A DNA stretch of 64,000 nucleotides from an uncultured bacterium (GTDB lineage: Bacteria > Verrucomicrobiota > Kiritimatiellia > RFP12 > UBA1067): assembly GCA_902772905.1 (NCBI GenBank), contig CACYCL010000142.1, forward strand, positions 15,105-79,104, read 5' to 3'. The notes beneath the pieces were generated by a model, which saw nothing but the letters and a program-made list of their open reading frames with translations, was not told where the DNA came from and made no database searches. Made by a program: the position numbers and the translations under genes. Position 1 is the stretch's first letter; the number at the start of each line of letters is the position of its first letter. Of this stretch, positions 1 to 42,436 are shown piece by piece.

Positions 1-803
1 CCGACAGACGGCACTATGGCGGCGTCGAACTGCATCTCGCCGTCCATCGCAATGCCGGCCTCGGCAAACTTCGGGCGCGCCAGCTCGACCGCCCTCTGCA
101 CCTTCTCCACGAGGTCGCCGGCGGCCGATCCCTTCGTGGAGAAGCTGAGATACGCCACTTTCGGAACTCCTCCGGTGAGGTCGCGGTACGACTGCGCCGT
201 CGCAAGGCCGATGTCTACGAGCTGCTCGGCTGTCGGGTTGGGTATCACGCCGCAGTCGCCGAAAGCGAGAACGGTGTCGCCGGACGGCGTCGGGCGCTTC
301 AAGTCGAGAATGAAGCAGGAACTCGCCGTCTTCACGCCGGGCTGGGTGCCAAGCGTGTGGAACGCGGCGCGCAGCATGTCGCCTGTGGAGGCTATGGACC
401 CGGCTACAAGGCCGTTCACACGACCGAGCTTCACCATCATGCCGCCGAAGTAGATGCGCTTCGCGCGGAGCGTCTTTTCAGCCGCCGCAAGGTCTATGAT
501 CTTCTGCTTCTCGGCGGGCTTCTTCGACTCCTTGGCGTTCCATGCCTCAAGATACGCCTTCTCGAGCTCGGCGTCGCCAGCCGTGTAGTCGATGGTCTTG
601 ATGCCCCGCTCGGCCAGGCTCAGCCTGGCCTTCTCCTCTGCGGCGGCTATCTCGGCGGCGGTGCCGAGAACAACCGGCGTGCATATCCTGCGGTCGACGC
701 ATGCGCACGCTGCCGTTATGACACGCGGATCCTGGCCCTCGGGCAGAACAACCGTTCCGTTCAGCTTGGAGGCCCGTTCAATTATGTTCTTTATGGCGTT
801 CAT
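1..803 (-). CDS. pta: Phosphate acetyltransferase (Pta); C-terminal part runs off the window edge. A possible alternative start lies 11 codons upstream at 836.
   Basis: Minus-strand translation gives MNAIKNIIERASKLNGTVVLPEGQDPRVITAA...SFSTKGSA...FDAAIVPSV, which is typical Pta. It sits immediately downstream of ackA in the same orientation. Confidence 0.85.
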   Translation of the reverse strand, partial: MNAIKNIIERASKLNGTVVLPEGQDPRVITAACACVDRRICTPVVLGTAAEIAAAEEKARLSLAERGIKTIDYTAGDAELEKAYLEAWNAKESKKPAEKQKIIDLAAAEKTLRAKRIYFGGMMVKLGRVNGLVAGSIASTGDMLRAAFHTLGTQPGVKTASSCFILDLKRPTPSGDTVLAFGDCGVIPNPTAEQLVDIGLATAQSYRDLTGGVPKVAYLSFSTKGSAAGDLVEKVQRAVELARPKFAEAGIAMDGEMQFDAAIVPSV

Positions 804-28400: not shown

Positions 28401-28633
28401 CCAATCTGGCTCGGCACCGTGCACGTACCAATATTCGCCGCATTGACTGTGTATGTATTATTGCTCGCGCCTTCACCGTGCGAGAAATAATTACCGAGCG
28501 CAGTATTGAGGCCGTTGGTGGTTATTACACCCTCCGACAGGTTCTCAAACTGGAGCTTGGTATCGGATTGGAGCGCCGCGAACGCGCCAAGCGCGGCCAC
28601 GGCTCCGACTACTGTTACTAGCAGTTTTTTCAT
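25454..28633 (-). CDS. Secreted surface protein (about 1059 aa) with GLUG-like Gly-rich repeats
   Basis: I moved the start to the ATG at 28633 (MKKLLVTVVGAVAALGAFAA, signal peptide) with an AAGGA RBS. GLUG-like segments include KIGGIVGLAQDAAAAFTNCWNYGDITI and GNGAGGLVGYGSKAITIYGGGNAGTI. Confidence 0.7.
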   Translation of the reverse strand: MKKLLVTVVGAVAALGAFAALQSDTKLQFENLSEGVITTNGLNTALGNYFSHGEGASNNTYTVNAANIGTCTVPSQIGEDPTTKALDIKTTFGNPLDVSVVAGGTAQDIDTGIYFDSLVKFTVCEDAPTQTYDNAKIVMWLQSEDGTGPTNLMVKAGSLTYAAGLDVQVTAATYECALPAGFDADAFHRVTIKSIKNITTSTTVVPGFAIYIDQATVGTSTKKWDTAFSSQYPISKVAAYLDKMAGDCFPSLIQSGDKTTLTKAGFDGTGSITDIVFTSTAPDFAADKELEEPVATVKIGDGEAEEVTSFADAVGKINNATSAAKLTLAKGLTLEEPMTFSANAEVTLDFAGFVLTNTSEFAAITNSALKLIVTNSVGTGGINCTSTGAAIYQTTATFPVDEETVNSELAITGGNFWGDEALPIDIDASYKGTLKIISGGAFAIPLPDCLVDGKVFAETPVDGLCAVIDKPVVTYTITFKYGMPYVEYPQTVAEGDLPQVPTAVDYNVEGWEFTGWDVTPVAAVANATYTAQYAPNSWAAFLGAPVNGAYEIDDLAELVKFKDGVAKLGTSGQNFRLAADIDADSLGYWDGIGTASGTNGSSGLNNCTFDGAGHTISNVKFTAAKYRGFFNQVLDSTISNLTINVTDIQQTAAAEHGYSAFAGNMKNSKIQNCVATGTIGTTAKPAMHTCGGFAVKSAGGNVFENCTNYVNIVCSLNDNPKIGGIVGLAQDAAAAFTNCWNYGDITITCKKCNNAGNGAGGLVGYGSKAITIYGGGNAGTIQSTDTTADGGTHPIKVGTIIAMQNDTSATVSGGVVAQADAAPAGAFANISGLNFATVDGNVATFVADNALAAGNTYKVMADGVTATFKFTAAGTIAFNTALATPTFAITADEGLEVTSATVGTVTTYTAAAPVVPVIDPSASKVEVTVAAESDTAAIEAVTVTPPAASGADAAEYKALFNFTATAGATAGEYTVTLTGIKEEVTTTVSTDAVKLLDGTGDGKVAVPAGLYYKVTPSTALPISGNAQTGVSDGTGVEVTKPGTTQGFIEVKLSPTPFAN

Positions 28634-28696
28634 TGTTTTTTTCCTTTGTTTGTTTACCACAAATTCGTCACCCATTCGGGTGTACACTTCTGCTTA

Positions 28697-28762
28697 CATT
28701 GCGAATTATACCATACACCCGTTCGGGTGACAAGGGGGGATTTGAAAAAAATTGAAAATGGA
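28697..28762. repeat. Pair of inverted 17-bp hairpin-containing elements in the 5' leader of the GLUG gene
   Basis: The two halves are gtcacccattcgggtgt and acacccgttcgggtgac. Each contains a CACCC-NNNN-GGGTG hairpin. They sit 65-130 nt upstream of the ATG at 28633. Confidence 0.4.
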
Positions 28763-28773
28763 GAATGGAGTGT

Positions 28774-28810
28774 AAAACGGCGCCGCCGCCGCAGGCGACT
28801 CCACAATTTT
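28774..28810 (-). terminator. Copy A of a conserved hairpin element (aacggcg..CGCCGCAGGCGACTCCACAATT), terminator-like, 3' of gene 28829..29425
   Basis: A CGCC-GCA-GGCG palindrome is followed on the minus strand by GUUUUAC. It lies 20 nt after the stop at 28829. The sequence is conserved with copies B and C. Confidence 0.45.
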
Positions 28811-28828
28811 CAATTCGCCCTTCTTACT

Positions 28829-29425
28829 CTACCCAACTTTTCCCATCACCCAAAGCATCGCCTTGAGTAATGTGAGCGCGGCAACTAAAATACCTGCAAC
28901 CTTAGCCGAAAAAGTGAGCCAGACATTTATCTTCTCCCTGCGAACTGCAACTGATATCTCTTCGGCGTGAAACAGCAATTTGCCAAGAATGTTGTCCAGT
29001 TCTTCTATCGCCGGGGCAAGAGCATCAAAGGCCACCTCTCGGTCATCTCCGTGTTTTATCTGCGCATCTCGGTGAAGATTTTGCGCGTCACGTATCCTCT
29101 CGAGCCAAGCGGGGTACTCCGGTACAACTTTCCTCACGACCTCTGCGTACCCGAGAAGTTTTTCATGGATATCGCAAAGTGTGCTCAGTTGACAGTCAAG
29201 AACTATGTCACACGAATCAAAATAGGCACGCTTCAAATGTCCAATGGCCTTATGCGCATCCTCTCCACAAAAATCGTTTTTTGCACAAGCCGTAAGAACA
29301 TGGCGAATAGCGTATCGCCACTCATTCAGGACAGGTGACACGAACGTCGTGCTGACCTGTTCAATCAGCTTTATGTTTGCTTCTGTCTTATCAACAAGGG
29401 ACAATGCGGCTTCAGCGGAAGTCAT
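28829..29425 (-). CDS. Hypothetical protein (198 aa) with a C-terminal transmembrane anchor
   Basis: Clean ORF in the lower-GC island. The C-terminus LTFSAKVAGILVAALTLLKAMLWVMGKVG is hydrophobic. I recognised no family. Confidence 0.55.
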   Translation of the reverse strand: MTSAEAALSLVDKTEANIKLIEQVSTTFVSPVLNEWRYAIRHVLTACAKNDFCGEDAHKAIGHLKRAYFDSCDIVLDCQLSTLCDIHEKLLGYAEVVRKVVPEYPAWLERIRDAQNLHRDAQIKHGDDREVAFDALAPAIEELDNILGKLLFHAEEISVAVRREKINVWLTFSAKVAGILVAALTLLKAMLWVMGKVG

Positions 29426-29597
29426 ACGCCAAAACCCTTTGCTTCTGCTTCGCGTACTCTCGCTCGGTCATGATACGCCCAAGCTGAAGCTTAACGTTGC
29501 CACGCGAATAGCGAGCAACGATGCGCTTTTCCTGCGTATCCGAAGCAGTGTCAGGGAGCCTGAAAACCGCACGAAGCCTCAAAATGCTTTGTTCCAT
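29412..29597 (-). CDS. Possible small protein (61 aa) overlapping the start of the membrane-protein gene
   Basis: ATG at 29597 giving MEQSILRLRAVFRLPDTASDTQEKRIVARYSRGNVKLQ.... It overlaps the downstream gene by 14 nt. The call is weak. Confidence 0.25.
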   Translation of the reverse strand: MEQSILRLRAVFRLPDTASDTQEKRIVARYSRGNVKLQLGRIMTEREYAKQKQRVLAYDFR

Positions 29598-29643
29598 GCT
29601 GAATATTATATCATATTGACATTGCGGCTGCAACAAGGGTGGT

Positions 29644-29686
29644 TTTGAAGGGAACGGCGGTGGCGCCGCAGGCGACTCCACAATTA
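29644..29686 (-). terminator. Copy B of the conserved hairpin element, 3' of the truncated ATPase gene
   Basis: The sequence is aacggcggtggcgccgcaggcgactccacaatt, with a double hairpin on the minus strand followed by UUCCCUUCAAAA. It lies 37 nt after the stop at 29723. Confidence 0.45.
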
Positions 29687-29722
29687 TACATTCTTCATTT
29701 TACATTCCCCTCGTCAGGGGGG

Positions 29723-30880
29723 TTAAACGCCAAGCAATTTGCGGAACGGAATGATTGCCGAAAAATACCCGTCAGCCGCAACAACCGGGGACAGAGTTCC
29801 AAAATATACAAGAGACACAAATGCAGACATTCCACAAGGGCGCTTGACCGACGCGACCTTGCCGCTCATCTCGTCAATGATGCTTCTTCCGATTTCTTTC
29901 TTGCGCTTGACTTCAACAAAGCAAAGAGCCTTTCTCGTCTGGATAAGCAAATCGACCTGACATCCCTTTCGTCCACGGGGAGAATTCGACCCTCTGCGCA
30001 AATACGGAGCAGCCGAGGTAATCACAGAGCCTTTCAAATGCAAATGCGGAACAAGCTCATGGTAGTTGTTGACGACCAGGTTTTCAAAGGCAAGTCCCAT
30101 TACGGCATCCATGTTCTCCAGCGCATCAAGGCCGGCGAATTCATATTCGTCGCGATCGATCACGGCCTTGACTGGCTCGATGAACTTCAGATAGAAACGG
30201 CAGTAGTTGTCGCTCATACGATATCTGTTTTCTCGCAGCTCCTCGCCGGTTTCCGGGTTCTTTCCCCTGTCTGACATGACAAGACCAGCTTCTGCCAGAC
30301 GCTCCATGGCATCGCTAACCCTCCCACCCTTCCCGATCTTAAGTTGCCTTGCCACCTCAACCGCTGTGCGAGGACCATCCACAAGACAGCGCAGAACCTT
30401 GGCCGTGAAATCCTGTTGCCTTGTTATGACATCATTAAACATTTCGTCGAAGTCATTCCTCAATACGCCGTCATGGGAAAATGCCATGCGGCGTATGTTT
30501 TCGCCGGCGGAAAGTCTTGGGTTCACTTCTTCCAGATAACGAGGAACACCTCCCGTGACCGACAAAACGTCCACAATTTCCTTAAGGTCGATGCGGTCGA
30601 CTTCGCGTCCCCAGAATTTCACGCACTCCTTAAGCGGCAGTTCGCGGACAACCAGGTCGCATGATCGTCTGCCGACAAATGCTGCACTATCGACAATATT
30701 CTCCTTGATCCAGCTCGAAACGCTTCCGCACAATACAAGTATCAGCCTATCGTGTTTCTTCCACATGTTGTCCCATGCAATCTTGATGGAATCCGCGAAA
30801 AGCTCGTCATAGCGGCCCATCCAAGATATCTCATCCAGCAGAACAACTGTCCACACATCGTCTTTTATTTCATGATCCAA
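29723..30880 (-). pseudogene. 5'-truncated paralog of the DUF234-type AAA ATPase; it lacks the first roughly 100 aa including the Walker A motif
   Basis: The translation begins at the Walker B region (VVLLDEISWM), aligning to residue about 110 of the full-length paralog at 31350..32795. The only available start is TTG and there is no SD. An in-frame stop lies two codons upstream. The break coincides with the 31-bp hairpin repeats. Confidence 0.5.
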
Positions 30881-30958
30881 TCGCTTAAAAGCCGAAAGCC
30901 AGCAGTCCGGAAGCGAAGACTCTGCTTCTGTCGCGTGGAGACATTATACACTATTTGT

Positions 30959-31042
30959 CCCCTATTTTGCAATAGGCAGATTAGGGGATAAAAAAGATGC
31001 CAGGAAAATTTAGCCCCTATTTTGCAATATGCAGATTAGGGG
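30959..31042. repeat. Two copies of a 29-31-bp hairpin element (cccctattttgcaatakgcagattagggg) spaced 55 bp apart
   Basis: Each has a CCCCTA...TAGGGG stem. On the minus strand each carries TTGCAA, and the proximal copy lies 18 nt upstream of TATAAT (gtgTATAATgtc), a promoter-like arrangement. They sit directly upstream of the truncated ATPase fragment. Confidence 0.6.
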
Positions 31043-31080
31043 ATATTATTTGATAGGCTTGAGCACAGGGTTTTCAGACC

Positions 31081-31125
31081 ACGGAAGAGCACTGAAACCG
31101 CCGCTTGGCGGGCACGGAAATGGTT
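31081..31125. repeat. Copy 1 of a 45-bp direct repeat (acggaagaRcactgaaRccgccgcttggcgggcacggaaatggtt)
   Basis: Near-identical to copy 2 at 32921..32965. It contains a CCGCC-gctt-GGCGG hairpin. ORF-track entries 31029..31316 and 32842..33192 share GRALKPPLGGHGNG only because both read through this repeat. Confidence 0.6.
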
Positions 31126-31326
31126 GCGAATGGGAGGCCGCAGGCGCAAAGAAACCCTGTGGCCGCCATATTCCACACAAAACAAAAGTGACGGGAAACA
31201 CTTCTCGTCACTTAAGGCGAGGACAATCCCCCCGCATCCCGATGACTCCAGCCTTACAGCCTTCATCAGTGCGTATTCTACCAAATCTGATGCCAGTAAG
31301 CAAGAGGGGGGGCTGAAAATGCAAAA

Positions 31327-31352
31327 CAGCGGTGTCGCCGCAGGCGACTCTA
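31327..31352 (-). terminator. Copy C of the conserved hairpin element, abutting the stop codon of the full-length ATPase gene
   Basis: A perfect GTCGCC-GCA-GGCGAC hairpin at 31334..31348, followed on the minus strand by ACCGCUGUUUUGCAUUUUC. Confidence 0.45.
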
Positions 31353-32795
31353 CCCAAACAGCTCATCAAGCGAAACTACAGACTGCACACGGCTCGAATA
31401 TTGATTCTGCAAAAGGCCGCTGGTTGTCACAAGTGTAAGATGAAGCGCTTTCTTAATGCCAGTCACGCCGGCGAATGTTGCGGTTTTCCTGTCGAGATCC
31501 TCGTCATACGCCTTGTCTATGGCGAATGCGTTTGCCGAATACTTCATCTCGCAGATGTTGACGACGTTGTCTGCCCTGTCAAGAACAAGATCTATCTGAA
31601 CCCCCTTCGGGTATGTCTCATTGCCCCTGAAAACCCATCCATATGCCTCGACATGCACACTGCCAACGCCCAGCGCCCTGCGAATCTGCGGCAGATGCTG
31701 CAGACACAGCCGCTCGAACGCAAGGCCGCGCCAGACCGCCTGCGCCGGCGATGCTATCGTCACCGACCAGAAATGCTCGTCGGTCGGCGGCGTATCGAGA
31801 AATCTGAAATGAAACAGGGTGAAGTTGTCAATGAGCTGGTAGACAGTGTTCTTCTTCTTGGCTCCGTACGACCGATAGCTTCTTATGAAACCGCTGGCCT
31901 CCAATGTCTCAAGCGTCTCGGAAAGCCTGCCTGTCGCTTCTATGCCCAGCACATCCAGCAACTCGATCCGGCTCATGCCGGCTTTCTTTCTGCCAAGCGC
32001 CTCCACGACGTTCTTGTATGACGATGCATTGCCGAAAAGAGAGGCGTAAAGATCGTTGAACTCTCCTCGCAGGGGCGCGTCGATGGCAAAGCAGATGCGG
32101 TCGAGATTCTGCGCCAGGCTCATTCCACGCGCAAGATAACGCCAGTAGTAAGGAATGCCGCCAAGCGCCATATAACATTCGGCGATGTCCTTTCTGCTCA
32201 TGCTGAGGCCACGTTCTACAGCCAATTCCTCGCACTCTCCGAGAGTAAACGGCTTAAGGTAGATTCGCGCCGTGACGCGATTGTGCAGACCTCCACGATT
32301 GCGGAAAAGGTTCTTGACCATCCAGGCGGCCGCCGAGCCGCAGACAATCAGCATTACATCCTTTCTTGCCGAAGCCCATTCGTTCCAGAAAGCCTGAAGC
32401 GCCGTCAGAAAATCTGACTTGGCAGTGTCCATCCAAGGAAGTTCATCTATGAAAACAACCTTCCGGCGCAGGGAGCTTCTTGAAATGATCTCCCTTAGCG
32501 AAGCAAAGGCGTCGAACCAGTTCTTAGGCACGGCCTTGGCAAGCCCGAATGTCGCCAACGATGACCTGAAATGTGAAAGCTGCTGCCTTTTGGTGGCGTT
32601 TGGCAAACCAGTATGATGAAAAGCGAAACGATCCGCAAATGTTTCGCGCACTAGAAATGTCTTTCCCACGCGTCGACGACCGTAGACGGCAACAAACTCC
32701 GACTCGTTTGAATTGAACAGACGAGTCAATTCAGTTATTTCATTTTTTCGCCCAACCATATCAGGTATTCCTTTTTTGTGGCCGAATGATATCAA
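31350..32795 (-). CDS. AAA+ ATPase of the archaeal-ATPase/DUF234 family (481 aa)
   Basis: Walker A is VAVYGRRRVGKTFLV and Walker B is VVFIDELPWMD; the C-terminus is DUF234-like. A promoter-like TTGACT-17-TATCAT lies upstream on the minus strand. Confidence 0.7.
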   Translation of the reverse strand: MISFGHKKGIPDMVGRKNEITELTRLFNSNESEFVAVYGRRRVGKTFLVRETFADRFAFHHTGLPNATKRQQLSHFRSSLATFGLAKAVPKNWFDAFASLREIISRSSLRRKVVFIDELPWMDTAKSDFLTALQAFWNEWASARKDVMLIVCGSAAAWMVKNLFRNRGGLHNRVTARIYLKPFTLGECEELAVERGLSMSRKDIAECYMALGGIPYYWRYLARGMSLAQNLDRICFAIDAPLRGEFNDLYASLFGNASSYKNVVEALGRKKAGMSRIELLDVLGIEATGRLSETLETLEASGFIRSYRSYGAKKKNTVYQLIDNFTLFHFRFLDTPPTDEHFWSVTIASPAQAVWRGLAFERLCLQHLPQIRRALGVGSVHVEAYGWVFRGNETYPKGVQIDLVLDRADNVVNICEMKYSANAFAIDKAYDEDLDRKTATFAGVTGIKKALHLTLVTTSGLLQNQYSSRVQSVVSLDELFG

Positions 32796-32920
32796 ATTTT
32801 CGTTATTAAGTCAATCGTTCCAATGATGTTTCATCATTTCTGTGCTTTATCACTATTGCAGAACGATATTAAGAACAAAAATCAAAGCTTATCCACCATT
32901 CTTCCTTGTACCAAATCACT

Positions 32921-32965
32921 ACGGAAGAACACTGAAGCCGCCGCTTGGCGGGCACGGAAATGGTT
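32921..32965. repeat. Copy 2 of the 45-bp direct repeat, about 126 nt upstream of the full-length ATPase gene
   Basis: See copy 1. It is followed by atataatga. Confidence 0.6.
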
Positions 32966-33249
32966 ATATAATGACCGCGCGCGCGTATATATTGGCGTCG
33001 ACTTTGCCCTTTGGGCCAAAAAACTCGTCAGAAAGGCCGAAAAATATTCAATGGATTGAAACGCGAAAGTGCAGCCTTGCACTCGCAAAAGTGCATGGTT
33101 GCACTCGGCAACTTGCATCGGATGCACTCGCAAAAGTGCAAGGTAGCACTTCGCGCAGTCAATGGTTGCACTTTCGCGCATCCATCCATTGACTCGAAAA
33201 GCCCCATATTGAGGCCCTCTATCACCCCTTCACATAGGCGAGAGCGGCA

Positions 33250-33579
33250 TGAACGCACTGGGTTCAGTCTGCACCCACTATGTATTGGATAGAAATCTTA
33301 GACGCCTTAAAGCCTAATATCTACTTCGCAATTTAATGTACGATCACATGATATCCTTATTATACCCATACCTAAGTTACTAAGCTGTTCATAACTGTTA
33401 AATAACTGTAGACAATTATCGATACTTTCTTACCAATTAAATATTTGTTCTAATTCTAATTTCATATTAATGTGAAAATAATGATTTTTATACACGTTTA
33501 AGAGTTTTTTATAGATCGTATAATTAATAACTTTTTTCTGTTCACAATATAGTTGATAATTTGATATAATACGTAGCAA
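33250..33579. other. Very AT-rich intergenic region at the gene-orientation switch; candidate oriC / DNA-unwinding element, also holding the mnmG promoter
   Basis: Everything to the left is on the minus strand and mnmG-dnaA-dnaN and onward are on the plus strand. The region is about 330 bp of AT-rich sequence with DnaA-box-like 9-mers (GTTGATAAT at 33552, TTATACACG at 33489). The TTCACA-18-TATAAT promoter at 33541-33570 precedes mnmG. Confidence 0.4.
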
Positions 33580-35505
33580 ATGAGCAACACAGTTTTTTAC
33601 GATTTGATTGTGGTCGGCGGTGGCCATGCTGGAAGTGAAGCGGCTTTGGCGGCTGCACGAATGGGTGTATCTACCCTTCTCATCACCTCGCGCATTGATG
33701 CCATTGCCAGAATGCCCTGCAACCCTTCAATTGGTGGTCTTGCAAAGAGTCATCTGGTATACGAACTTGATGCACTCGGCGGCGAGATGGGAAAGAACGC
33801 CGATGCGACTGCCCTTCAATCAAAGACACTCAACAAAAGCCGCGGACCAGCCGTATGGGCAACTCGCTGTCAATGCGCCAAGGAAGAATACACACGTCGG
33901 ATGCAGTCTGTTGTCCTAAGCCAAGATAACATAACTGCAATCGAAGATGCAGCCATTGATCTCATAGTTGTTGACTCAAACAACAAGTCATCATCAGATA
34001 GCGGACAAACAAACGCACAATGCACAAATGAGAAAACCAGTCAAGCGCACTTTTCTGCAAATGTCAAATCAGCACAGCAGCTGACAAGCAGCATTGAACA
34101 CAACTATAAAGTCATAGGAATAAAGACATCAAACCACGGTGACATTAATTGCAAGGCAGTTGTAATAACTTCCGGTACAGCTCTCAATGGTTGCATATGG
34201 ATAGGAAAAACATCAGAGGAAAGTGCCGGAGATGGACGACCAGCCGTAAATCAACTCTCAACTTGTCTTGCAAGGCTTGGTTTTGATTTAATCCGACTCA
34301 AAACGGGTACACCACCACGACTAAAAGCAGATACGTGTGACTTTTCAAAATGCGTACGTCAGGATGGAGAACTTCCGCCGCCATTGTTCCACGTGGAACA
34401 ATTCAAATACACCTCAGAATTGTTCCACGTGGAACAATTGCCTTATTTTCCATGCTGGCTGACTCACACAACACTAAAAACACATGAAATCATACGTGAA
34501 AACTTGCAAAACTCGGCACTGTATGGCGGTGCAATAGAGGGCGTAGGTGTTCGATACTGTCCATCAATAGAAGACAAGATTGTAAGATTCAAGGATGCAA
34601 CGCAACACCATGTAATGCTTGAACCAGAAGATTCTGCCGGCAAAGTAATCTATCCAAACGGGTTGAGCTGTTCACTGCCTAAAGATATTCAAGAAGAAAT
34701 GGTGCATTCAGTTCCAGGACTGGAATCGGCTGAATTTCTTGCATATGCATACGCAATCGAGTATGATGGAATAGACTCGCGTGAACTAAAGCACAGTCTT
34801 GAGTCAAAGAGATACAGTGGGCTTTTCTTTGCAGGACAGATTAATGGAACTACTGGATACGAAGAAGCCGCAGCTCAAGGAATAATGGCTGGAATAAATG
34901 CGGCATTTTACGTCCGTAAAGAAGAACCTCTTGTGCTAAGCAGACAAGATGCATACATCGGGGTTATGATAGATGATCTTGTGACAAAGGGCACTGATGA
35001 GCCATATCGCATGTTCACCAGCAGGGCAGAACGAAGACTCATCCTAAGACAAGACAATGCACGTTATCGATTGCTGTCTGCCGCCCGTCGAGTGGGCATA
35101 ATTTCAAAGGAAACACTTTATCAGCGAGAAAAAGAAATAGAGATTCTTAACTATTTTGCAAGTCACGATAAAAATGCAAGTTCAAATGCCAACAACAATT
35201 CAATAGCCGCAAATCAAATATATGATGGTCTTACAGACCAGATTAAAAAAGAGATAACAATTATGCGTCATTATGCACCATATATCGATCAGGAGTTAAA
35301 AGCTGCAGAACGCGCAAAAAAAGACGAAGACATAAAGATACCGGCATGGCTGAACTATGACAAGTGCCTTGCAGTGAGATTTGAAAGTCGTGAGAAATTG
35401 AAGCGGCACCGTCCTGAAACCTTGGCGCAAGCTTCAAGAATACCAGGTGTCAATCCAGCGGACATAGCAGTTCTGGCAGTCATAATAAAGAAGGGACACA
35501 TCTAG
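33580..35505 (+). CDS. mnmG: tRNA uridine 5-carboxymethylaminomethyl modification enzyme MnmG (GidA), with a low-complexity insertion
   Basis: [22 protein letters not shown] motif, [24 protein letters not shown] and [11 protein letters not shown]. About 45 aa of S/N/Q-rich insertion and a duplicated LFHVEQ segment are present relative to canonical MnmG. Confidence 0.9.
34383..34439. repeat. Two copies of a perfect 20-22-bp palindrome (AATTGTTCCACGTGGAACAATT) 35 bp apart, in-frame inside mnmG
   Basis: attgttccacgtggaacaat lies at 34383-34402 and aattgttccacgtggaacaatt at 34418-34439. They encode the duplicated LFHVEQ peptides. Confidence 0.8.
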
Positions 35506-35514
35506 TTGTCTAAT

Positions 35515-35539
35515 GTTATCAACATTTTCTGTTGATAAC
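35515..35539. promoter_or_regulatory. Perfect inverted repeat GTTATCAACA-ttttc-TGTTGATAAC (two DnaA-box-like 9-mers) about 100 nt upstream of dnaA; likely a DnaA autoregulatory site
   Basis: TTATCAACA differs from the E. coli DnaA box TTATCCACA at one position. The same TGTTGATA core recurs in the 40344-40445 cluster. An extended -10-like TGGTATATT follows at about 35586. Confidence 0.5.
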
Positions 35540-35637
35540 CTGAATACATAAGTTAATTAGTTTTTTAACATAAGCCGCACATTTTATGGTATATTATTGG
35601 GCGAAACGTCACACTAGACAACAAGATACTTTAAACA

Positions 35638-37035
35638 ATGAACGAATCAGCAGAAAATGCGGCTAGGATGAAGTGGGAAAGGGCAAAGGCCATATACCTC
35701 TCTACGCTGCAATCGGAAGACGAGAAGAGCCAGGTAGAGCGCTATCTGTCGATGATTGTTTCAGTCGAGCAAAAGGGAAGCGCGTTCGTTGTAATCACTT
35801 CGAGTGCATTCTCCGCGGAGTTTTTGAAGGCAAACTATTCAGACAGGCTGAAGAAGTGCCTTGAACTTGTCATGCCTGACGAGAAGGTCGAACTGGAGTT
35901 CAAGTTCAGGGAGATTCCACTGCCTTCGATCATGTCGCATATTGTCGAGCCGAGAAAATCGCAGAAGATATCTACGTTCGTGTCGACAATGCCTCTCAAC
36001 GACGAATACACATTCGACGAATTCGTAAGAGGCCCTTCGAACAGTTTCGCTCTTGCCGCTGCGCAGGCCGTAGTGGCAAATCCAGGCAAGGGAGGCTACA
36101 ATCCTCTTTTCATACATGGCGGAACCGGGCTGGGCAAGACGCACCTGATGCAGGCGATAGGCAACGAGATCAAGCGAAAGGATCCATCTCTTGCTGTTTG
36201 CTACCTCACCGCAGAGGAATACCTGAACGAATACGTCAACTACATGAAGGACAGCAACGTTCCAGGATTCAGGGCGAAGTACAGGTCAGTCGACGTGCTT
36301 CTGCTCGACGACGTGCAGTTCTTCCAGAAGGGCAAGCAGATACAGGAAGAGTTCTTCAACACGTTCAACGCGCTAAAGGACAAGCGAAAGCAGATCGTAA
36401 TGACATCTGACGTGGCTCCGAAGAACCTGCCTGCAATAGAGGAAAGGCTCATATCGCGGTTCGAGGGAGGCATGCTACAGGAAATTGAAACTCCCAGCTA
36501 TGAAACGCGCCTTGCAATTCTGAGGAAGAAGCTCGAAGGTCTCGAAGTCAACGTACCGGACTATGCCCTTGAGTTCATAGCCGACAGGATAAAGAGCCAT
36601 GTGAGGGCAATGGAAGGCGCGCTTGGAAAGGTAAGCGTGTATCTTTCGGCATATCCAGGCTCTACGCTGAGCAACGAAATTCTGGAACACCTGCTTGGAG
36701 ACTTCATACAGAAAGAGCAGATGATGAGGAAGCTCAACATAGAGGAAGTAAAAGTAGCGGTTGCAAAGAAGTACTCCATAACGATGGAACAGATGATGTC
36801 GAAGGAGAGGACACAGTCGGTAGTCACTCCGCGCCAGCTTGCAATGTACATAGCGCGGAAGTTCACCACAAAGAGCCTTCCGGAGATAGCGAAGATGTTC
36901 GACAAGACGCATGCCACCATCATACACGGCGTGAGAAACATAGAAAGGCATCTGGACGTGGAGCCTGAACTAAAGGCGAGCCTTGCAGAGATTCTTGCTG
37001 AATTCGGATACAAGCTCTCTGACAAGATGGACTAG
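35638..37035 (+). CDS. dnaA: Chromosomal replication initiator protein DnaA
   Basis: AAA+ core with LFIHGGTGLGKTHLMQAIGNEI and LLDDVQFF, plus a C-terminal DNA-binding domain (RQLAMYIARKFT...IAKMF..HATIIHGVRNIE). Confidence 0.95.
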   Translation: MNESAENAARMKWERAKAIYLSTLQSEDEKSQVERYLSMIVSVEQKGSAFVVITSSAFSAEFLKANYSDRLKKCLELVMPDEKVELEFKFREIPLPSIMSHIVEPRKSQKISTFVSTMPLNDEYTFDEFVRGPSNSFALAAAQAVVANPGKGGYNPLFIHGGTGLGKTHLMQAIGNEIKRKDPSLAVCYLTAEEYLNEYVNYMKDSNVPGFRAKYRSVDVLLLDDVQFFQKGKQIQEEFFNTFNALKDKRKQIVMTSDVAPKNLPAIEERLISRFEGGMLQEIETPSYETRLAILRKKLEGLEVNVPDYALEFIADRIKSHVRAMEGALGKVSVYLSAYPGSTLSNEILEHLLGDFIQKEQMMRKLNIEEVKVAVAKKYSITMEQMMSKERTQSVVTPRQLAMYIARKFTTKSLPEIAKMFDKTHATIIHGVRNIERHLDVEPELKASLAEILAEFGYKLSDKMD

Positions 37036-37322
37036 AGAAGCTGTTGAGAACTTGATCAGAGAATGGTGAAAAGTGGTGCAGGTTATCGACAGCGGTGCTT
37101 CGAACCGGATGGCTTTGAACATGTCTCAAATGGCAACCAAGAGGAAATCAACAGTTGAACTCATGCAAAACCCCAACAAACACTGGGTCAAAACGACTTG
37201 TCAACATTGTCTACAGTGTATAATACTATAAAAAATACACTTCATCTTAATAACAGTATTTGATACAATTCACAATCAAGGCTGTAGAAGAAGACTGCGG
37301 CCAGCAAACGTAAGGAGACAGC

Positions 37323-38420
37323 ATGATGAAATTCAAGATAGTAAGGTCGAGGTTTCTTGAGGGACTGAAGTCCGTGCAGAACATTGTAGTTGGCAAGGGC
37401 TCTCTGCCAATACTGCAAAATGTTCTCATGGAGGCGAACGGCAAGGAGCTTAGGATGACCACCACTGATCTTGACATATCCATTCGCTCTATATGCGAGT
37501 GCGAAGTCATTGAACAGGGTAACTCAACGCTTCCCGTAAAGCTCCTGTTCAATGCCGTCGCCAAGGTGGCCGAGGGGGAGATAGAGGTTTCGATAGATGC
37601 GCACGAGCGCGCCGAGATCAACGCAGGAAACGCGAAGTTCAAGCTTGCGGGAATGCCGGAGTCGGAGTTTCCGCGCCTCCCTCAGGACGAGGACGCGTTC
37701 GCGTACACCATTCCCCAGACGACGCTCAAGGAAATGCTTCGCAAGGTTTCTTATGCAGCCAGCCAGGACGACACGAGGCGCACTCTGAAGGGCGTTCTCA
37801 TGAGCTTCAAAGACGAAAAGCTCACCATGGTAGCCACCGACGGACGCCGCCTTGCGCTTGTAGAGAACGAGAACGAGTTTCCAAAGGACTCCGAGAGGGA
37901 CATTGTGCTTCCCTCAAAGGCGGTGTCGGAGCTTCAGCGCTCGCTTGGAGGTGAAGGTGATGTCTCGCTTCTCGTGCAGAAGTCTCAGATATGCTTCAAG
38001 CTCGGCGGCATAATAATATACTCCAAGTTGATGGACGACGTCTACCCGAACTACCGCCAGGTCATACCTAGGGAGACAGCCGAGCAGATCGAGGTGGACC
38101 GCCAGCTGCTTCTTGACGCTCTTGACCGCGTGAGCGTAATGACCATAGACGAAGCTCATTCAACGAAGCTCATATTTGAAAGCGGAAAGCTCACCGTTAC
38201 TTCCGCTGCGTCTGACATAGGGGAGGCAAAGGATGTCGTGCCCATCAAGTACGCAGGCGAGAAGATAGAGATAATGTTCAATCCGACCTACGTGATGGAC
38301 GCTCTGAAGGCCATCGACGACGACATGGTTACAATACACATAAACGACGGTCATTCGCCTGCAGTGATAAAGTGCTCGATACCGTTCCTGTATGTGCTGA
38401 TGCCTCTCCGGATAAACTGA
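37323..38420 (+). CDS. dnaN: DNA polymerase III beta sliding clamp
   Basis: 365 aa directly downstream of dnaA, with the typical three-domain beta-clamp sequence (MKFKI.R..L...L..VQNIV......PILQNVL.EA......LRMTTTDLDISI). Confidence 0.95.
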   Translation: MMKFKIVRSRFLEGLKSVQNIVVGKGSLPILQNVLMEANGKELRMTTTDLDISIRSICECEVIEQGNSTLPVKLLFNAVAKVAEGEIEVSIDAHERAEINAGNAKFKLAGMPESEFPRLPQDEDAFAYTIPQTTLKEMLRKVSYAASQDDTRRTLKGVLMSFKDEKLTMVATDGRRLALVENENEFPKDSERDIVLPSKAVSELQRSLGGEGDVSLLVQKSQICFKLGGIIIYSKLMDDVYPNYRQVIPRETAEQIEVDRQLLLDALDRVSVMTIDEAHSTKLIFESGKLTVTSAASDIGEAKDVVPIKYAGEKIEIMFNPTYVMDALKAIDDDMVTIHINDGHSPAVIKCSIPFLYVLMPLRIN

Positions 38421-38464
38421 TTAAAAGACTGCGACTGAGAAGTGAAAAGGTCAAAGGGTATACC

Positions 38465-39709
38465 ATGAAGATCTGGACCGACAAGAACTATCCAATCATC
38501 ATTTCCTGTGCGAAGCAGCTTTCGCGCTGGACAGAGGCAGAAGTAATTGAGATGGGCTACAAGCCCATTGAAGTAACGGAGAACACGGTAGTTGTAAGAG
38601 GTGACATGCGCGATGTCATGAGGCTCAATCTGTGGCTCAGGACTGCACATCGCGTACTTGTTCCCCTGCTTAGGACGACATGCAGAAACATACGCGAGCT
38701 GTACGAGTCTGTCCTGTCGATAGACTGGGAGAACCTTCTTGACGCCGATGGATATTTCTCTGTTTCGTCCATAGTTCACAACTACACCATACGCGACACC
38801 AGGCTTCCCTCGCTTTACACCAAGGACGCCATAGCCGATCGAATGAGGGAGAAATGCCAGCGCAGGCCTGATTCCGGAGGGGCGAACTTCGGAGCGGCGG
38901 TTTTCGTATACTGGGAACGCAACGAAGTAATAATATACCTTGATACATCGGGCGAGCCGCTTTCAAAACGCGGATACCGGCGCATTCCGGGGTCTGCGCC
39001 CCTTCAGGAGACTTTGGCAGCCGCATGCATCATGGCCTTGAGGTGGGATCCGTCTACTCCGTTTGTGTCGCCGATGTGCGGCAGCGGTACGCCTGCGATA
39101 GAAGCAGTAATGATGGCAATGAACAAGGCTCCCGGTTCACTTAAGGGGCATTTCGCGTTTCAGTCCATAAAGGGATATAGCAGGTTCATACCTGGAGAGA
39201 CGTCGTCGCTTGTTTCCTCGCGTCACAGGGCCGGTGCATCGCCGGAGCAGATATGGAAGGAAATGGTGCGTGACGCAAAGTCAAAGGAACGCACCGTCGG
39301 ACTGCCTAAAATAGTTGCGACCGACATTTCGCCGGATGCCATTGAGAACGCCCTCACAAATTCCATCGCCGCAGGTGTTGCGCAGCACATTGAGTTCGCA
39401 GCGTGTGACTTTGGCGACACCAAGGTTCCGGAATCAGAGTCAACGCCGAAAGGAGTAGTGTTCTTCAATCCCGAGTATGGCATACGTCTTGGAGATCCTG
39501 TTGAGCTTGAGCCAATATACGAGCGCATAGGCACATTCATGAATGAAAAGTGCCGCGGCTATACAGGTGGTCTAATAACGGGAAATCCCGATCTTGCCGC
39601 CAAGGTCAATCTCTATTACAAAAACCGCGTTCCTTTCTTCAACGGGCCGATAGACTGCAGGCTCTTTGTATACGAGGGATGCGAACTGAAAGGACAGAAC
39701 GTCAAATGA
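38465..39709 (+). CDS. THUMP-domain class I SAM-dependent RNA methyltransferase (RlmL / RlmKL N-terminal-module-like)
   Basis: The start is the ATG at 38465 (MKIWTDKNYPII) with an AAGGG RBS. SAM-binding motifs include DPMCGSGT and the FFNPEYG catalytic motif. The ORF-track start at 38372 overlaps dnaN and was rejected. Confidence 0.75.
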   Translation: MKIWTDKNYPIIISCAKQLSRWTEAEVIEMGYKPIEVTENTVVVRGDMRDVMRLNLWLRTAHRVLVPLLRTTCRNIRELYESVLSIDWENLLDADGYFSVSSIVHNYTIRDTRLPSLYTKDAIADRMREKCQRRPDSGGANFGAAVFVYWERNEVIIYLDTSGEPLSKRGYRRIPGSAPLQETLAAACIMALRWDPSTPFVSPMCGSGTPAIEAVMMAMNKAPGSLKGHFAFQSIKGYSRFIPGETSSLVSSRHRAGASPEQIWKEMVRDAKSKERTVGLPKIVATDISPDAIENALTNSIAAGVAQHIEFAACDFGDTKVPESESTPKGVVFFNPEYGIRLGDPVELEPIYERIGTFMNEKCRGYTGGLITGNPDLAAKVNLYYKNRVPFFNGPIDCRLFVYEGCELKGQNVK

Positions 39710-40347
39710 ACTTTGAAGAATTTCTGAGGCCGGACGAACCGAATGAGAAGCCCGCAGCGGAAGAGACAGATGAAGAGGAAATTCAGCCTGAGGAGCTAGA
39801 TGTACAAAAGGCAGTCGTTGAGGCCTTGGCGGCCGAGAAGGTAGCCCGTGACGAGGAAATAGGAAAACTCAGGAAGGAAAATGAATTTCTTCACAAGAAA
39901 GTTGCGGAACTCACTGCGAAGAATGAATCGATGACTGCCAGCATAAGCAGCATGAAGAGTTCGCTTGACCAAGTCGGGGACGTGCTGGCCAGAAATTCAG
40001 AAAGCGAAACATCAAGCAAAATAGCGCTCATCGACAGAAACATCGAATGTGAAGACCGCTTTCCAGGCGAGACTCGCGACCATGTGCTTGAGGTGATACG
40101 CGAGGCCAGAGACAGGGACGAAGCCGAGGGAAGATGCCGTCGAGCCCAGCTTCTTGAAAGTGTACTCCTGGCAAACGAGCCCAACGGTACGCTTGCAAAA
40201 CGCCGTGCCGCGCTTGAAAAACTTTTCAATGAAAACGCCAACGTCATAAACGGAACAGTGATAGAAGAGCTTGCAAAGCTTGGAATTTCGCATAAAAAAG
40301 GCGAAGAGTATCTATTGGCATCAGAGATTATCAAGAGGAGTTATTGA
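39708..40347 (+). CDS. Hypothetical acidic coiled-coil protein (213 aa)
   Basis: The ATG at 39708 overlaps the upstream stop (ATGA). The protein is E/K-rich with heptad-like segments. The ORF-track N-terminal extension from 39550 overlaps the previous gene and was rejected. Confidence 0.55.
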
Positions 40348-40445
40348 TAAATATCAACATACATACTAACATATGTTGATATTGCTGTTAATAAGTTTAT
40401 AACTCTGTTGATACTGTTTATAACTTTGCCCTTGCAAGTTGATAA
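40344..40445. promoter_or_regulatory. Cluster of five DnaA-box-like 9-mers in a 100-bp AT-rich intergenic region
   Basis: TTGATAAAT/ATATCAACA form the palindrome ttgataaatatcaa at 40344-40357. TGTTGATAT is at 40375, TGTTGATAC at 40406 and GTTGATAAA at 40437. Confidence 0.45.
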
Positions 40446-40468
40446 AATAAAGTCCATAATACTCACCT

Positions 40469-40954
40469 GTGACGAACCTAGATCCAGAAATCTGCTATCA
40501 GATACGTGAAGCTCGCCGTGCGGCGAAGCTATCACAGATTGTAGTTGCGAACGATATTGGCTGCAAGCAGTCGGCGTTGTCGATGTTTGAGCAGGGAGAC
40601 GGAACAAAGCTTAGCGATGAGTCGATAAAGAAGCTTGCCGATAAATTCGGCATAGACATTTCACAAAAGAAGTCGTCTGTCCAGGCAACACCTGATGGAG
40701 CCGTTGTTGCACAGCGAACGGTATCAGAGAGCAAAGTTGGTTTCTGCCCAAACCCTCGCTGTCCGACGAACCATATATATGAGGTGGAGGGCAGAACCCT
40801 TTATCTTCCTGATCGTGCAGCGGCGGATCCAGTTGGAGGAAAGTTCTGCGCAATGTGCGGTGAAGTGCTTATGAAAGTATGCCCGAACTGTGGAGCGCAC
40901 GTGCACGACGGAGGATTCTGCTCGGTTTGCGGAGAGTCGTACATATCGGTGTAA
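40469..40954 (+). CDS. XRE-family HTH transcriptional regulator with a C-terminal Cys-rich zinc-ribbon
   Basis: HTH region is ICYQIREARRAAKLSQIVVANDIGCKQSALSMFEQG and the C-terminus has CPNPRCP...CAMCG...CPNCG...CSVCG. The GTG start and weak RBS leave the start uncertain. Confidence 0.6.
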   Translation: MTNLDPEICYQIREARRAAKLSQIVVANDIGCKQSALSMFEQGDGTKLSDESIKKLADKFGIDISQKKSSVQATPDGAVVAQRTVSESKVGFCPNPRCPTNHIYEVEGRTLYLPDRAAADPVGGKFCAMCGEVLMKVCPNCGAHVHDGGFCSVCGESYISV

Positions 40955-40990
40955 ACCAGACATAAATACACAACCAAGGAGGAGAAGCTG

Positions 40991-42436
40991 ATGGACAAGG
41001 TAAAAAGATACGCGGTATATCTATTGGTGATTGCCGGTTGCGGCGGGCTTCTCTTCGACTTTGGAGGAACAATAATCGGTCCGGCGCTGCCGTACATAGG
41101 TCCTGTAGAGGACAATCCCGGCAGCCTTGGTCTTTTCACGACCGGGCAGGTGTCGCATCTTTCGAGCGCCGTCGTGATGTGCGCCGCGATTGCCTGTCTT
41201 GCAGCCGGCTGGCTTACCGAAAAGATAGGGCGAAAGTTGATGATGCTCATTTCAGCCGCCATAGCCGCGCTCGCATGCCTTCCGATATGCCTAACGGGCG
41301 GGAACTACGCAATGTTCTTTGTCGGGCGGGCCATGCAGGGCGTGGCCGCCGGCTTTATAGGCGTTGTAGTTCCCATGTACCTCGCCGAATGCCTTGACGC
41401 GGACAGCCGCGGCAAGGGAGCCGGCATGTTCCAGCTTCTTGACTTCATAGGCATAACATTCTGCTCAATAGTTGGCCTGGCGGTAGTGCACTGCATAGGC
41501 GCGGCAGACGACACCACGGTTTCCGCCGCAAAGAAGGCGCTTGCCTGGAAGACTATTTTCTGGTCCAGCGCCGTTCCGGCCATTCTGTTTTTCCTTGGTG
41601 CGCTTGGCCTTAGAGAATCGCCGCGCTGGCTGTATCGCCGTGGTCGGAAAGAAGAGGCGCTTTCCGCGCTCGCGGCGAACAACGGCGAGGCGAAGGCGAA
41701 AGAGATATTGGAAGAGATGATCTCAAGTGACGAGGCAGAAGAAGCCGAGAAGGCCAGGAACGCATCAGCTACTGACACTCTCTTCCAGCGCAAGTACGTT
41801 CTGCCGTTCTGCATCTCCCTTGCAGTGCTGATATGCAATCAGGCGATAGGGTTCAACGCCATTCAGTACTTCTCGATCCCGATGTTCATGAAGGCAGGTC
41901 TTACCCAGTCTACGGCAAACGCGGCGAACTTCGTCGTGTGGCTTGTTCCCATTCCAGTGACAGTTGTTGCTCTGAGCCTTGTGGACAGGAGCGGGCGCAA
42001 GACCCTCCTGAAGCTCGGCACTCTCGGCATGGTTGCCGCGTTGGCAGGTGTTGCAACGGTGTTTCTGCTGCTTGAGAGGGGGGCGATGGCCGGCGGCCTC
42101 TTTGCCGGGTGGATGACTGTTGCCGGAATTGCGCTTTTTGTGGCGTCGTTTTCGATTGGTCCCGGAGTGGTGGTGTGGCTTGCGCTCTCCGAGCTGATGC
42201 CAAGCCGCATACGCGCAAACGGAATGTCGATAGCGCTGTTCGTAAACCAAATGGTTGCCTTTGCGATAGCCGATGCGTTTCTTCCATGGCAGAAGGCCTG
42301 CGGCTACGCAGTCGTGTTCTACTGCCTTGCCGGCTTTGCGTTTCTATACTTCCTGACGGCTGCGTTCCTTCTTCCGGAGACCAAGGGCAAGACGCTTGAG
42401 GAAATCGAGGCCTATTTTGCAGGCAAGCGGCGATGA
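40991..42436 (+). CDS. MFS transporter, sugar-porter family
   Basis: 481 aa with 12 predicted TM segments. Motifs GRKLMML and PETKGKTLEEIE are typical of sugar porters. A GGAGGAG RBS precedes the start. Confidence 0.8.
   Translation: MDKVKRYAVYLLVIAGCGGLLFDFGGTIIGPALPYIGPVEDNPGSLGLFTTGQVSHLSSAVVMCAAIACLAAGWLTEKIGRKLMMLISAAIAALACLPICLTGGNYAMFFVGRAMQGVAAGFIGVVVPMYLAECLDADSRGKGAGMFQLLDFIGITFCSIVGLAVVHCIGAADDTTVSAAKKALAWKTIFWSSAVPAILFFLGALGLRESPRWLYRRGRKEEALSALAANNGEAKAKEILEEMISSDEAEEAEKARNASATDTLFQRKYVLPFCISLAVLICNQAIGFNAIQYFSIPMFMKAGLTQSTANAANFVVWLVPIPVTVVALSLVDRSGRKTLLKLGTLGMVAALAGVATVFLLLERGAMAGGLFAGWMTVAGIALFVASFSIGPGVVVWLALSELMPSRIRANGMSIALFVNQMVAFAIADAFLPWQKACGYAVVFYCLAGFAFLYFLTAAFLLPETKGKTLEEIEAYFAGKRR

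Follow-up and report, generated by a model that had tools for sequence, protein, structure and literature searches.

A conserved array of DnaA-box-like sequences at the promoter of an XRE/zinc-ribbon regulator gene in the origin region of a Kiritimatiellia bacterium, and its probable control by DnaA

Which protein reads a dense array of nine-nucleotide boxes that occupies a short intergenic spacer close to the replication genes of a bacterium, and what does the array control? The question is raised by a 64-kb stretch of origin-proximal DNA from a Kiritimatiellia (PVC group) bacterium (the whole of which we call the window), where the boxes (40342-40445) resemble DnaA boxes and precede the gene of an XRE/zinc-ribbon regulator (40469-40954, + strand; 161 aa, GTG start codon, Pfam HTH_3 and DZR). 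A previous inspection of the letters, the sequence-only reading, had offered three answers, i.e. the DnaA-assembly region of a bipartite origin, a DnaA-titration site similar to datA or DARS, and the operator of the adjacent XRE gene. We have found that the array of TTATNAACA boxes is real and deeply conserved, and that it is the promoter module of the XRE gene rather than a feature of the dnaA neighbourhood as such, given its fixed register to the promoter and its co-inheritance with the gene. The array most likely serves as a switch that DnaA controls close to the origin, and not as the origin itself: judging from the sequence comparisons presented here, we consider it likely that DnaA oligomers on the array control, and probably repress, the transcription of the regulator, with the titration of DnaA as a side effect.

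The window was scanned on both strands for TTATNAACA, with at most one mismatch allowed. The boxes named in the sequence-only reading are present at their positions, in a cluster whose distance from the end of dnaN (38420), given there as about 2 kb, measures 1.9 kb; the count of five has to be raised to eight boxes (40342-40445), plus one degenerate box. The first box, TTATCAATA (40342-40350, -), overlaps the stop codon of the upstream coiled-coil gene and is directly followed by the left-arm box ATATCAACA (40351-40359, +), the sole strong (+) box of the array in the window, at a relative position where a (+) box is found in most orthologous promoters; the two boxes together form the inverted repeat TTGATA-AA-TATCAA. 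The element ttgataaatatcaa, previously described as a perfect palindrome, is actually a 6-bp inverted repeat around AA, and a stronger symmetry within the array is AATATCAACATA-N10-TATGTTGATATT. The inner box of the left arm, ATACTAACA (40363-40371, +), is degenerate with two mismatches, while relatives have a good box at this place. The right arm (40374-40423, -) consists of five head-to-tail boxes, TGTTGATAT / TGTTAATAA / AGTTTATAA / TGTTGATAC / TGTTTATAA, i.e. ATATCAACA (40374-40382), TTATTAACA (40386-40394), TTATAAACT (40394-40402), GTATCAACA (40406-40414) and TTATAAACA (40415-40423), with start-to-start steps of 12, 8, 12 and 9 bp. The last box, TTATCAACT (= AGTTGATAA; 40437-40445, -), falls between the -35 and -10 hexamers of the XRE promoter.

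The intergenic spacer (40348-40468) is 121 bp long, has 73% A+T and contains seven of the boxes, the eighth being the one that overlaps the upstream stop codon. Dinucleotide-preserving shuffles of the spacer give an expectation of 0.66 +/- 0.80 boxes, and seven boxes were reached in none of 5000 shuffles and by none of 1148 composition-matched permuted 9-mers; chance occurrence of boxes in AT-rich DNA is ruled out by these two controls. The spacer is also the densest 121-bp stretch of the window, and TGTTGATA occurs six times in the 64 kb, versus 0.5 expected.

The promoter that the array adjoins has its -35 hexamer, TTGCAA (40432-40437, +), after a conserved C-rich stretch with the consensus CCCCCTTG, and its -10 hexamer, CATAAT (40455-40460, +), within the near-invariant AATAAAGTCCATAAT, ending 8 nt before the GTG start codon; a simple promoter scan of the window gives the same sigma-70-type promoter, TTGCAA-17-CATAAT. 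Conservation, which the sequence-only reading had named as a means of checking its proposal, is borne out at exactly this place, as the array is kept at the XRE promoter across orthologous loci. Five genome relatives retain both the gene order gidA-dnaA-dnaN-rlmL-coiled-coil-XRE and the boxes in the spacer between the last two genes; a metagenome scan has added 80 more loci with XRE orthologues (52-74% identity), and in every orthologous locus that has enough upstream DNA the array is located directly upstream of the XRE start.

We have inspected 74 non-redundant orthologous promoters and calculated the statistics of box positions, counted from the first base of the -10 hexamer, on a non-redundant set of 71. 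The number of boxes per promoter is 7.0 on average (range 4-10), and the positions of the (-) boxes are in register with the promoter: -40 (59/71 promoters), -49/-50 (54/71), -61/-62 (53/71) and -69/-70 (34/71), with (+) boxes occurring farther upstream in various numbers of promoters. In 59 of the 71, the array stops 8 bp short of the -35 hexamer; inside the -35/-10 spacer, a (-) box is found at -18 in 29 promoters and any box (-27 to -9) in 44. In 62/71 promoters, 7-9 nt separate the end of the -10 hexamer from the start codon (GTG/TTG/ATG), so that the mRNA of the regulator would be leaderless or nearly so; a start codon other than ATG is used for the regulator in many lineages.

The array follows the XRE gene through rearrangements of the locus: it is kept where the gene is inverted and convergent with the coiled-coil gene (loci L051, L052, L067 and L091), where another gene has been inserted (L020, L025, L026) and where the upstream neighbours are unrelated (L023, L024, L038, L043, L085); in L002-L004, where the spacer measures 75 bp, 2-3 boxes are left. 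An RNA element or terminator of the upstream gene was considered and rejected, because the array precedes the promoter and, in loci with an inverted XRE gene, is no longer next to the coiled-coil gene; no Rfam match and no terminator-like site were found at the locus, and the fold z-score of -2.6 at the array is explained by the inverted boxes. The high local density of near-consensus boxes in intergenic DNA is that of DnaA-box clusters outside oriC, and at DnaA-regulated promoters, too, boxes are found over the promoter of the adjacent gene or directly beside it.

Is the 9-mer a DnaA box? TTATNAACA is identical to the universal DnaA box TTATNCACA at every position but the sixth, and the boxes match eight of the nine positions of TTWTNCACA, with A in place of C at position 6 in 99% of the XRE-promoter boxes. 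At position 5, the three independent classes of sites (XRE-promoter boxes, n=518; dnaA-upstream boxes, n=67; dnaA-dnaN boxes, n=65) have C in 61-73%, A in 7-25%, T in 8-18% and G in 1-11%, the same tolerance with a preference for C that is known at this position from the DnaA boxes of E. coli and M. tuberculosis (PMC5043019). The perfect canonical box TTATCCACA does not occur in the 64-kb window; in the dnaA-dnaN spacers of L028 and L044, TTATCCACA or TTGTCCACA serves as one of the tandem origin boxes. Taken over the origin sites, the DnaA of this clade apparently tolerates any base at position 6.

The DnaA protein of the window (dnaA, 35638-37035, +) has the recognition helix FDKTHATIIH in its domain IV, which differs from the E. 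coli helix GGRDHTTVLH by D433T, T435A and a one-residue deletion; both substitutions fall in helix 5 at positions that contact bases in E. coli DnaA (PMC5043019). In Lentisphaeria, where DnaA likewise has HAT for HTT in its recognition helix, 11-bp-phased TGTTAATAAC arrays are located immediately upstream of dnaA, and no XRE homologue was found in the 5-20 kb available at these loci. A DnaA sub-clade (L002-L004, L063 and L083) has the changes P423K and H439S/N (LKEI...HATIIS/N), and TTATCTACA occurs at the dnaA-upstream pair in 5/5 loci of this clade, while the XRE boxes there stay TCAACA; we have not taken this covariation of protein and DNA as proof of DnaA binding, as it concerns one clade and effectively one event, and it is suggestive only.

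The same motif recurs at a small set of promoters, at places where one would look for DnaA boxes, and its sites there are conserved in relatives. When 675 kb of Kiritimatiellia DNA was surveyed for clusters (three boxes or more), these lay upstream of the XRE gene (83), dnaA (12), gidA (5) and dnaN (2), and the two remaining ones are also at XRE or gidA; in the window, 15 of the 18 matches to TTATCAACA (at most one mismatch) lie in the intergenic DNA of the gidA-dnaA-dnaN-XRE block. A perfect converging pair, TTATCAACA-N5-TGTTGATAA (35516-35538), which the sequence-only reading did not include, is located about 50 bp upstream of the -10 region of dnaA; most relatives with enough sequence (24 loci and the window) have such a pair 90-120 bp upstream of the dnaA start, and we presume it to be a site of DnaA autoregulation. 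A hairpin was considered at this pair, as six genomes hinted at symmetrical 'compensatory' changes, and was rejected when 25 loci showed independent variation of the arms (e.g. TCTACA/TCAACA, with unequal flanks). Upstream of gidA/mnmG (33580-35505), phased box-like repeats, TGTTCATAAC TGTTAAATAAC TGTAGACAA TTATCGATAC (33386-33425, -), are followed by the boxes TTGTGAACA and TTATCAACT (33539-33559, -), which lie over the -35 hexamer and the spacer of the gidA promoter (TTCACA ... TGATATAAT).

In the spacer between dnaA and dnaN (37323-38420), a module on the + strand (37198-37228) consists of the tandem boxes TTGTCAACA TTGTCTACA, GTGT and the trios ATA ATA CTA, and is followed by AT-rich DNA, with the conserved dnaN promoter TTTGATACAAT (37259-37269) on its 3' side. 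The origin basal unwinding system is said to go back to work by Richardson in 2016 and to comprise a DnaA-box pair plus DnaA-trios. Boxes followed by at least three trios within 16 bp and by AT-rich DNA are present at 37198-37228 and at the equivalent sites of relatives: in L001-L005, L028, L029, L058, L111 and others, a tandem of TTRTCNACA boxes is separated by 3-4 nt from CTA/ATA trios, behind which come AT-rich DNA and the dnaN promoter (in L111, TTATCGACA ATATCAACA gcct CTA CTA TTT CTA ATA), and the module was found in the dnaA-dnaN spacer of all lineages inspected. The arrangement is that of the box-spacer-trio system as defined by Pelliciari et al. and has its preferred first trio as well, 3'-GAT-5', i.e. 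5'-CTA-3' on the box strand (PMC8287927). Site 37198-37228 is likely the origin-unwinding site, as far as its sequence indicates, and the cumulative GC skew, another check put forward in the sequence-only reading, has its minimum at about 33-35 kb in the window, close to the array.

How might DnaA act on the array? In the mechanism that we propose, DnaA, probably in its ATP form, would bind the strong boxes and oligomerise along two converging arms, one of 1-3 (+) boxes and one of 4-5 (-) boxes, the latter ending 8 bp upstream of the -35 hexamer. The occupancy of the array would track the level and activity of DnaA and thus set the transcription of the regulator; in the window, where a box lies in the core promoter, high occupancy would most likely occlude RNA polymerase and repress the regulator. 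In most genomes, some 3 kb separate the module from the predicted unwinding site (3.2 kb in the window), so that it would be duplicated early and would bind DnaA early after initiation; this proximity suggests a secondary, titration-type effect, of the kind that has been proposed for DnaA-box clusters close to the origin of B. subtilis (PMC3245932).

Several observations weigh against this proposal. An autoregulatory operator would also stay with its gene as the array does, which has remained with the XRE gene where this was inverted or relocated or another gene was inserted, and which is found at homologues of about 40% identity in unrelated contexts. The near-fixed A at position 6 of the XRE-promoter boxes is stricter than the origin boxes, which accept A, G, T and C; where boxes follow one another in steps of 8-9 bp, as some do, the packing is not the 11 bp of E. 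coli oriC; and 27 of the 71 orthologous promoters have no box inside the core promoter. The sign of the regulation is not readable from sequence; in lineages without a core box, the array stops 8 bp before the -35 hexamer. The binding of these boxes is itself a prediction for Kiritimatiellia DnaA.

The alternative that survives best, which we still regard as unlikely, is that the boxes are the autoregulatory operator of the XRE protein itself, whose dimers or higher oligomers would bind converging TTATCAACA / TGTTGATAA sites and repress their own promoter, the likeness to DnaA boxes being coincidental or the regulator having evolved to read DnaA boxes. The protein has an N-terminal Cro/C1-type helix-turn-helix (HTH), a variable linker and a C-terminal double zinc ribbon, according to Pfam and alignments; NCBIfam and Pfam assign it to no specific family, and a fold search of the Protein Data Bank (PDB) with its AlphaFold2 model has matched HipB, SinR and 434 Cro over the HTH part only. 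HTH proteins of the Cro/HipB/SinR type bind palindromic operators and commonly autoregulate; many of the promoters contain a near-perfect 20-bp palindrome, TTATCAACA-NN-TGTTGATAA; and the recognition helix of the orthologues, which an exhaustive search places in essentially one 50%-identity cluster, is as invariant as the boxes.

The inheritance of the array with the gene, whatever its neighbours or orientation, extends to distant homologues. We have found about 160 further full-length homologues at 30-45% identity, the named ones of which come from Kiritimatiellia or 'Verrucomicrobia' metagenome-assembled genomes (MAGs), and have compared the genomic contexts of nine such loci: boxes are present upstream of the XRE homologue in seven, i.e. 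in L097 (lpxI/TPR neighbours), L102/3 (PrmA-like), L104/5, L108, L109 (priA), L110 (kinase gene) and L111, where the homologue again follows dnaA-dnaN-rlmL. The boxes are absent in two high-GC lineages (L100/101 and L106/107) despite the identical recognition helix GCKQSALSM, and homologues with the changed helix CTQSALSM (L104, L108) retain them; in this small sample, the boxes do not co-vary with the helix as would be seen for a Cro/XRE-type autoregulatory operator. Upstream of the box-less homologue in L100, from a lineage of 66% G+C, three direct repeats of CCCGCTGCGCGGGCGCATAAT (about 400-480) stand in place of the array and may be a regulatory element of that homologue. As an anecdotal observation, priA, the gene of the replication-restart helicase, adjoins or lies near relocated or distant XRE genes (L109, 10001-12835; L023, 3-992).

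Further points speak against the XRE protein as the binder. The same 9-mer is found at the dnaA promoter, at the gidA promoter, in the box-trio module and in the Lentisphaeria arrays upstream of dnaA, which have no XRE gene nearby. The spacing of converging boxes is not fixed: it takes each of the values 0, 1, 2 and 3 nt at XRE promoters and ranges over 4-6 nt at dnaA (N5 in the window), and in the window array, whose inner half-site is degenerate, the two strong boxes that converge have 14 nt between them. Most XRE-promoter boxes are arranged head-to-tail. Such variable, head-to-tail arrays would suit monomeric DnaA sites and not a rigid HTH dimer of the Cro type, which the AlphaFold2 model and the fold search suggest for this HTH, for which reason we favour DnaA. 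A 9-bp half-site with a free fifth position also mirrors DnaA boxes, unlike typical HTH half-sites. The operator proposal thus holds for the controlled DNA, as the array is an integral and conserved part of the XRE promoter, while the evidence on the binding protein favours DnaA; binding by DnaA and self-binding by the XRE protein are not mutually exclusive.

A cluster that primarily buffers DnaA, through titration or ATP hydrolysis as at datA or through nucleotide exchange as at DARS, with its overlap with the XRE promoter incidental, is more doubtful still. With seven to eight good boxes packed into some 100 bp and the predicted unwinding site 3.2 kb away, such an element would be duplicated immediately after initiation; its converging boxes are reminiscent of the core of DARS, its same-direction arrays of datA (PMC5742627), and origin-proximal clusters restrain initiation in B. 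subtilis (PMC3245932). The earlier titration proposal is supported in part, namely in that the boxes are most readily explained as sites for DnaA and lie close to the predicted unwinding site, but what is conserved is the register of the boxes to the -35/-10 elements of the XRE promoter and not their distance to dnaA, the module being located beside priA, a kinase gene, lpxI and further genes in other genomes; only 2-3 boxes are left in L002-L004, and the consensus of the integration host factor (IHF) site, WATCAANNNNTTR, has no match on either strand at 40300-40480, within or beside the array.

The weakest proposal, that the cluster is the functional half of a bipartite origin where DnaA assembles for unwinding or helicase loading, is highly improbable: the box density is highest here near the GC-skew minimum, and such origins flanking dnaA exist in Bacillus and Epsilonproteobacteria (PMC5043019, PMC3245932), but every lineage inspected has its box-trio-AT-rich module between dnaA and dnaN. 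The cluster, which two genes separate from that module, is flanked by no trio run and, outside the promoter, by no AT-rich stretch for unwinding; it retains 2-3 boxes in the 75-bp spacer of L002-L004, and has no fixed position next to dnaA across relatives, as it is inverted in L051/52/67/91 and lies away from dnaA, with the XRE gene, in L097, L109 and L110.

The remaining features of the locus are as follows. The coiled-coil gene (about 39703-40347), for whose product NCBIfam and Pfam give no family, lies between the gene of an RlmL-like THUMP methyltransferase (end at 39709) and the XRE gene; it is found at this place in nearly all orthologous loci and is absent from the distant L111. Genes for an MFS transporter and a Mur ligase are located 3' of the XRE gene. 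The closest matches to the DnaA protein, among one-genome-per-species contigs, come from rumen and gut Kiritimatiellia MAGs (57-72% identity). The G+C content falls from about 0.62 to 0.43-0.52 over approximately 28000-41000, the housekeeping genes gidA, dnaA and dnaN included. Just upstream of the origin region are two neighbouring genes of the ATPase_2 family (PF01637, archaeal-type ATPase; 29723-30880, -, and 31350-32795, -), one of which has a C-terminal winged-helix domain; a GC-richer island just upstream of the AT-rich box region of gidA is formed by 4-5 imperfect palindromes, AAAGTGCA-N4-TTGCACTCGC, which recur about every 22 bp (33048-33192). Inside dnaA, a sub-threshold Rfam match to AsdA, an antisense RNA of dnaA mRNA (36115-36179, -; 29 bits versus a gathering score of 52, E=0.008), is probably due to chance.

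To our knowledge, nothing is known experimentally about replication control in Kiritimatiellia and most of the PVC group, and our literature search found no paper on Kiritimatiellia origins. The present analysis offers a probable clade-specific DnaA box, TTATNAACA, with a matching change in the DnaA recognition helix, a concrete prediction of where the origin unwinds, between dnaA and dnaN, a candidate set of just four DnaA-regulated promoters (gidA, dnaA, dnaN and the XRE gene) and a strikingly conserved, directly testable module of DnaA array and regulator. If the regulator is indeed controlled by DnaA, the module would provide a natural and clean read-out of DnaA activity and a handle on the coupling of replication to other processes in gut and rumen bacteria; even if ordinary, it is a well-documented case of a DnaA-box cluster outside oriC that has been tied to one gene over a very long evolutionary time. 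As a speculation to which we give a low probability, the XRE/zinc-ribbon protein may be a hitherto unrecognised, Kiritimatiellia-wide regulator of replication or the cell cycle that is wired directly to DnaA: it may be the output of a DnaA-sensing promoter, in functional analogy to Sda, which DnaA controls in Bacillus, or to GcrA of Caulobacter, or it may be a reader of DnaA boxes that competes with DnaA at its own promoter, dnaA, gidA and the origin. On this view, there would be a functional reason for the deep linkage dnaA-dnaN-rlmL-(coiled-coil)-XRE and for the cases in which priA is a neighbour (L109, L023).

With which known systems does the module compare? Operators of the Cro/CI/SinR/HipB type also consist of palindromic DNA over the regulator's own promoter, and the adjacent protein has that HTH fold; unlike them, the array has 9-bp half-sites with a free centre, variable spacing and head-to-tail order, and its motif recurs at dnaA and the origin. 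The basal unwinding system of the origin has the same boxes, whereas the cluster at 40.3 kb is without trios and unwinding element. E. coli datA, DARS1 and DARS2 are likewise non-origin DnaA-box clusters near oriC; in datA, essential same-direction boxes have an IHF-binding site between them (PMC5742627). Same-direction boxes are common to datA and the array, whereas no counterpart was found in the array of the IHF site, which has a defined spacing in datA and DARS2; moreover, datA and DARS are defined by their biochemical activities (ATP hydrolysis, or ADP release with a three-box core) and not as promoter elements, while our comparison is one of sequences.

DnaA-repressed promoters with a box in the core promoter are those of E. 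coli dnaA and mioC and of B. subtilis dnaA. The XRE promoter is like them in having a box over or between the -35 and -10 hexamers, where DnaA would compete with RNA polymerase, and the gidA boxes and the dnaA-upstream pair of the window also resemble these promoters of E. coli and B. subtilis; it differs in having seven to eight boxes versus one or two, and a transcription factor, not a replication gene, as the target. By analogy, the closest known class would be the DnaA-box clusters outside oriC of B. subtilis. These are said to have been described by Ishikawa in 2007 and by Okumura in 2012. Those at yqeG-sda, ywlC-ywlB and yydA-yycS regulate sda, ywlC and yydA, and clusters close to oriC restrain initiation in a dosage- and position-dependent manner (PMC3245932). 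The present array is likewise dense and intergenic, consists of near-consensus boxes, and lies near oriC and upstream of one gene; the transcription of the neighbour is modulated by DnaA in B. subtilis and predicted from its sequence to be so here. Its fixed architecture of two converging arms in register with a promoter and its box variant TTATNAACA set it apart, as does its attachment to one regulator gene across a class-level clade, whereas in Bacillus the clusters lie upstream of different genes in different species. DnaA-box clusters acting as DnaA-responsive promoters are therefore of a known kind, to which the array would add a box variant and a partner gene that have not been described before.

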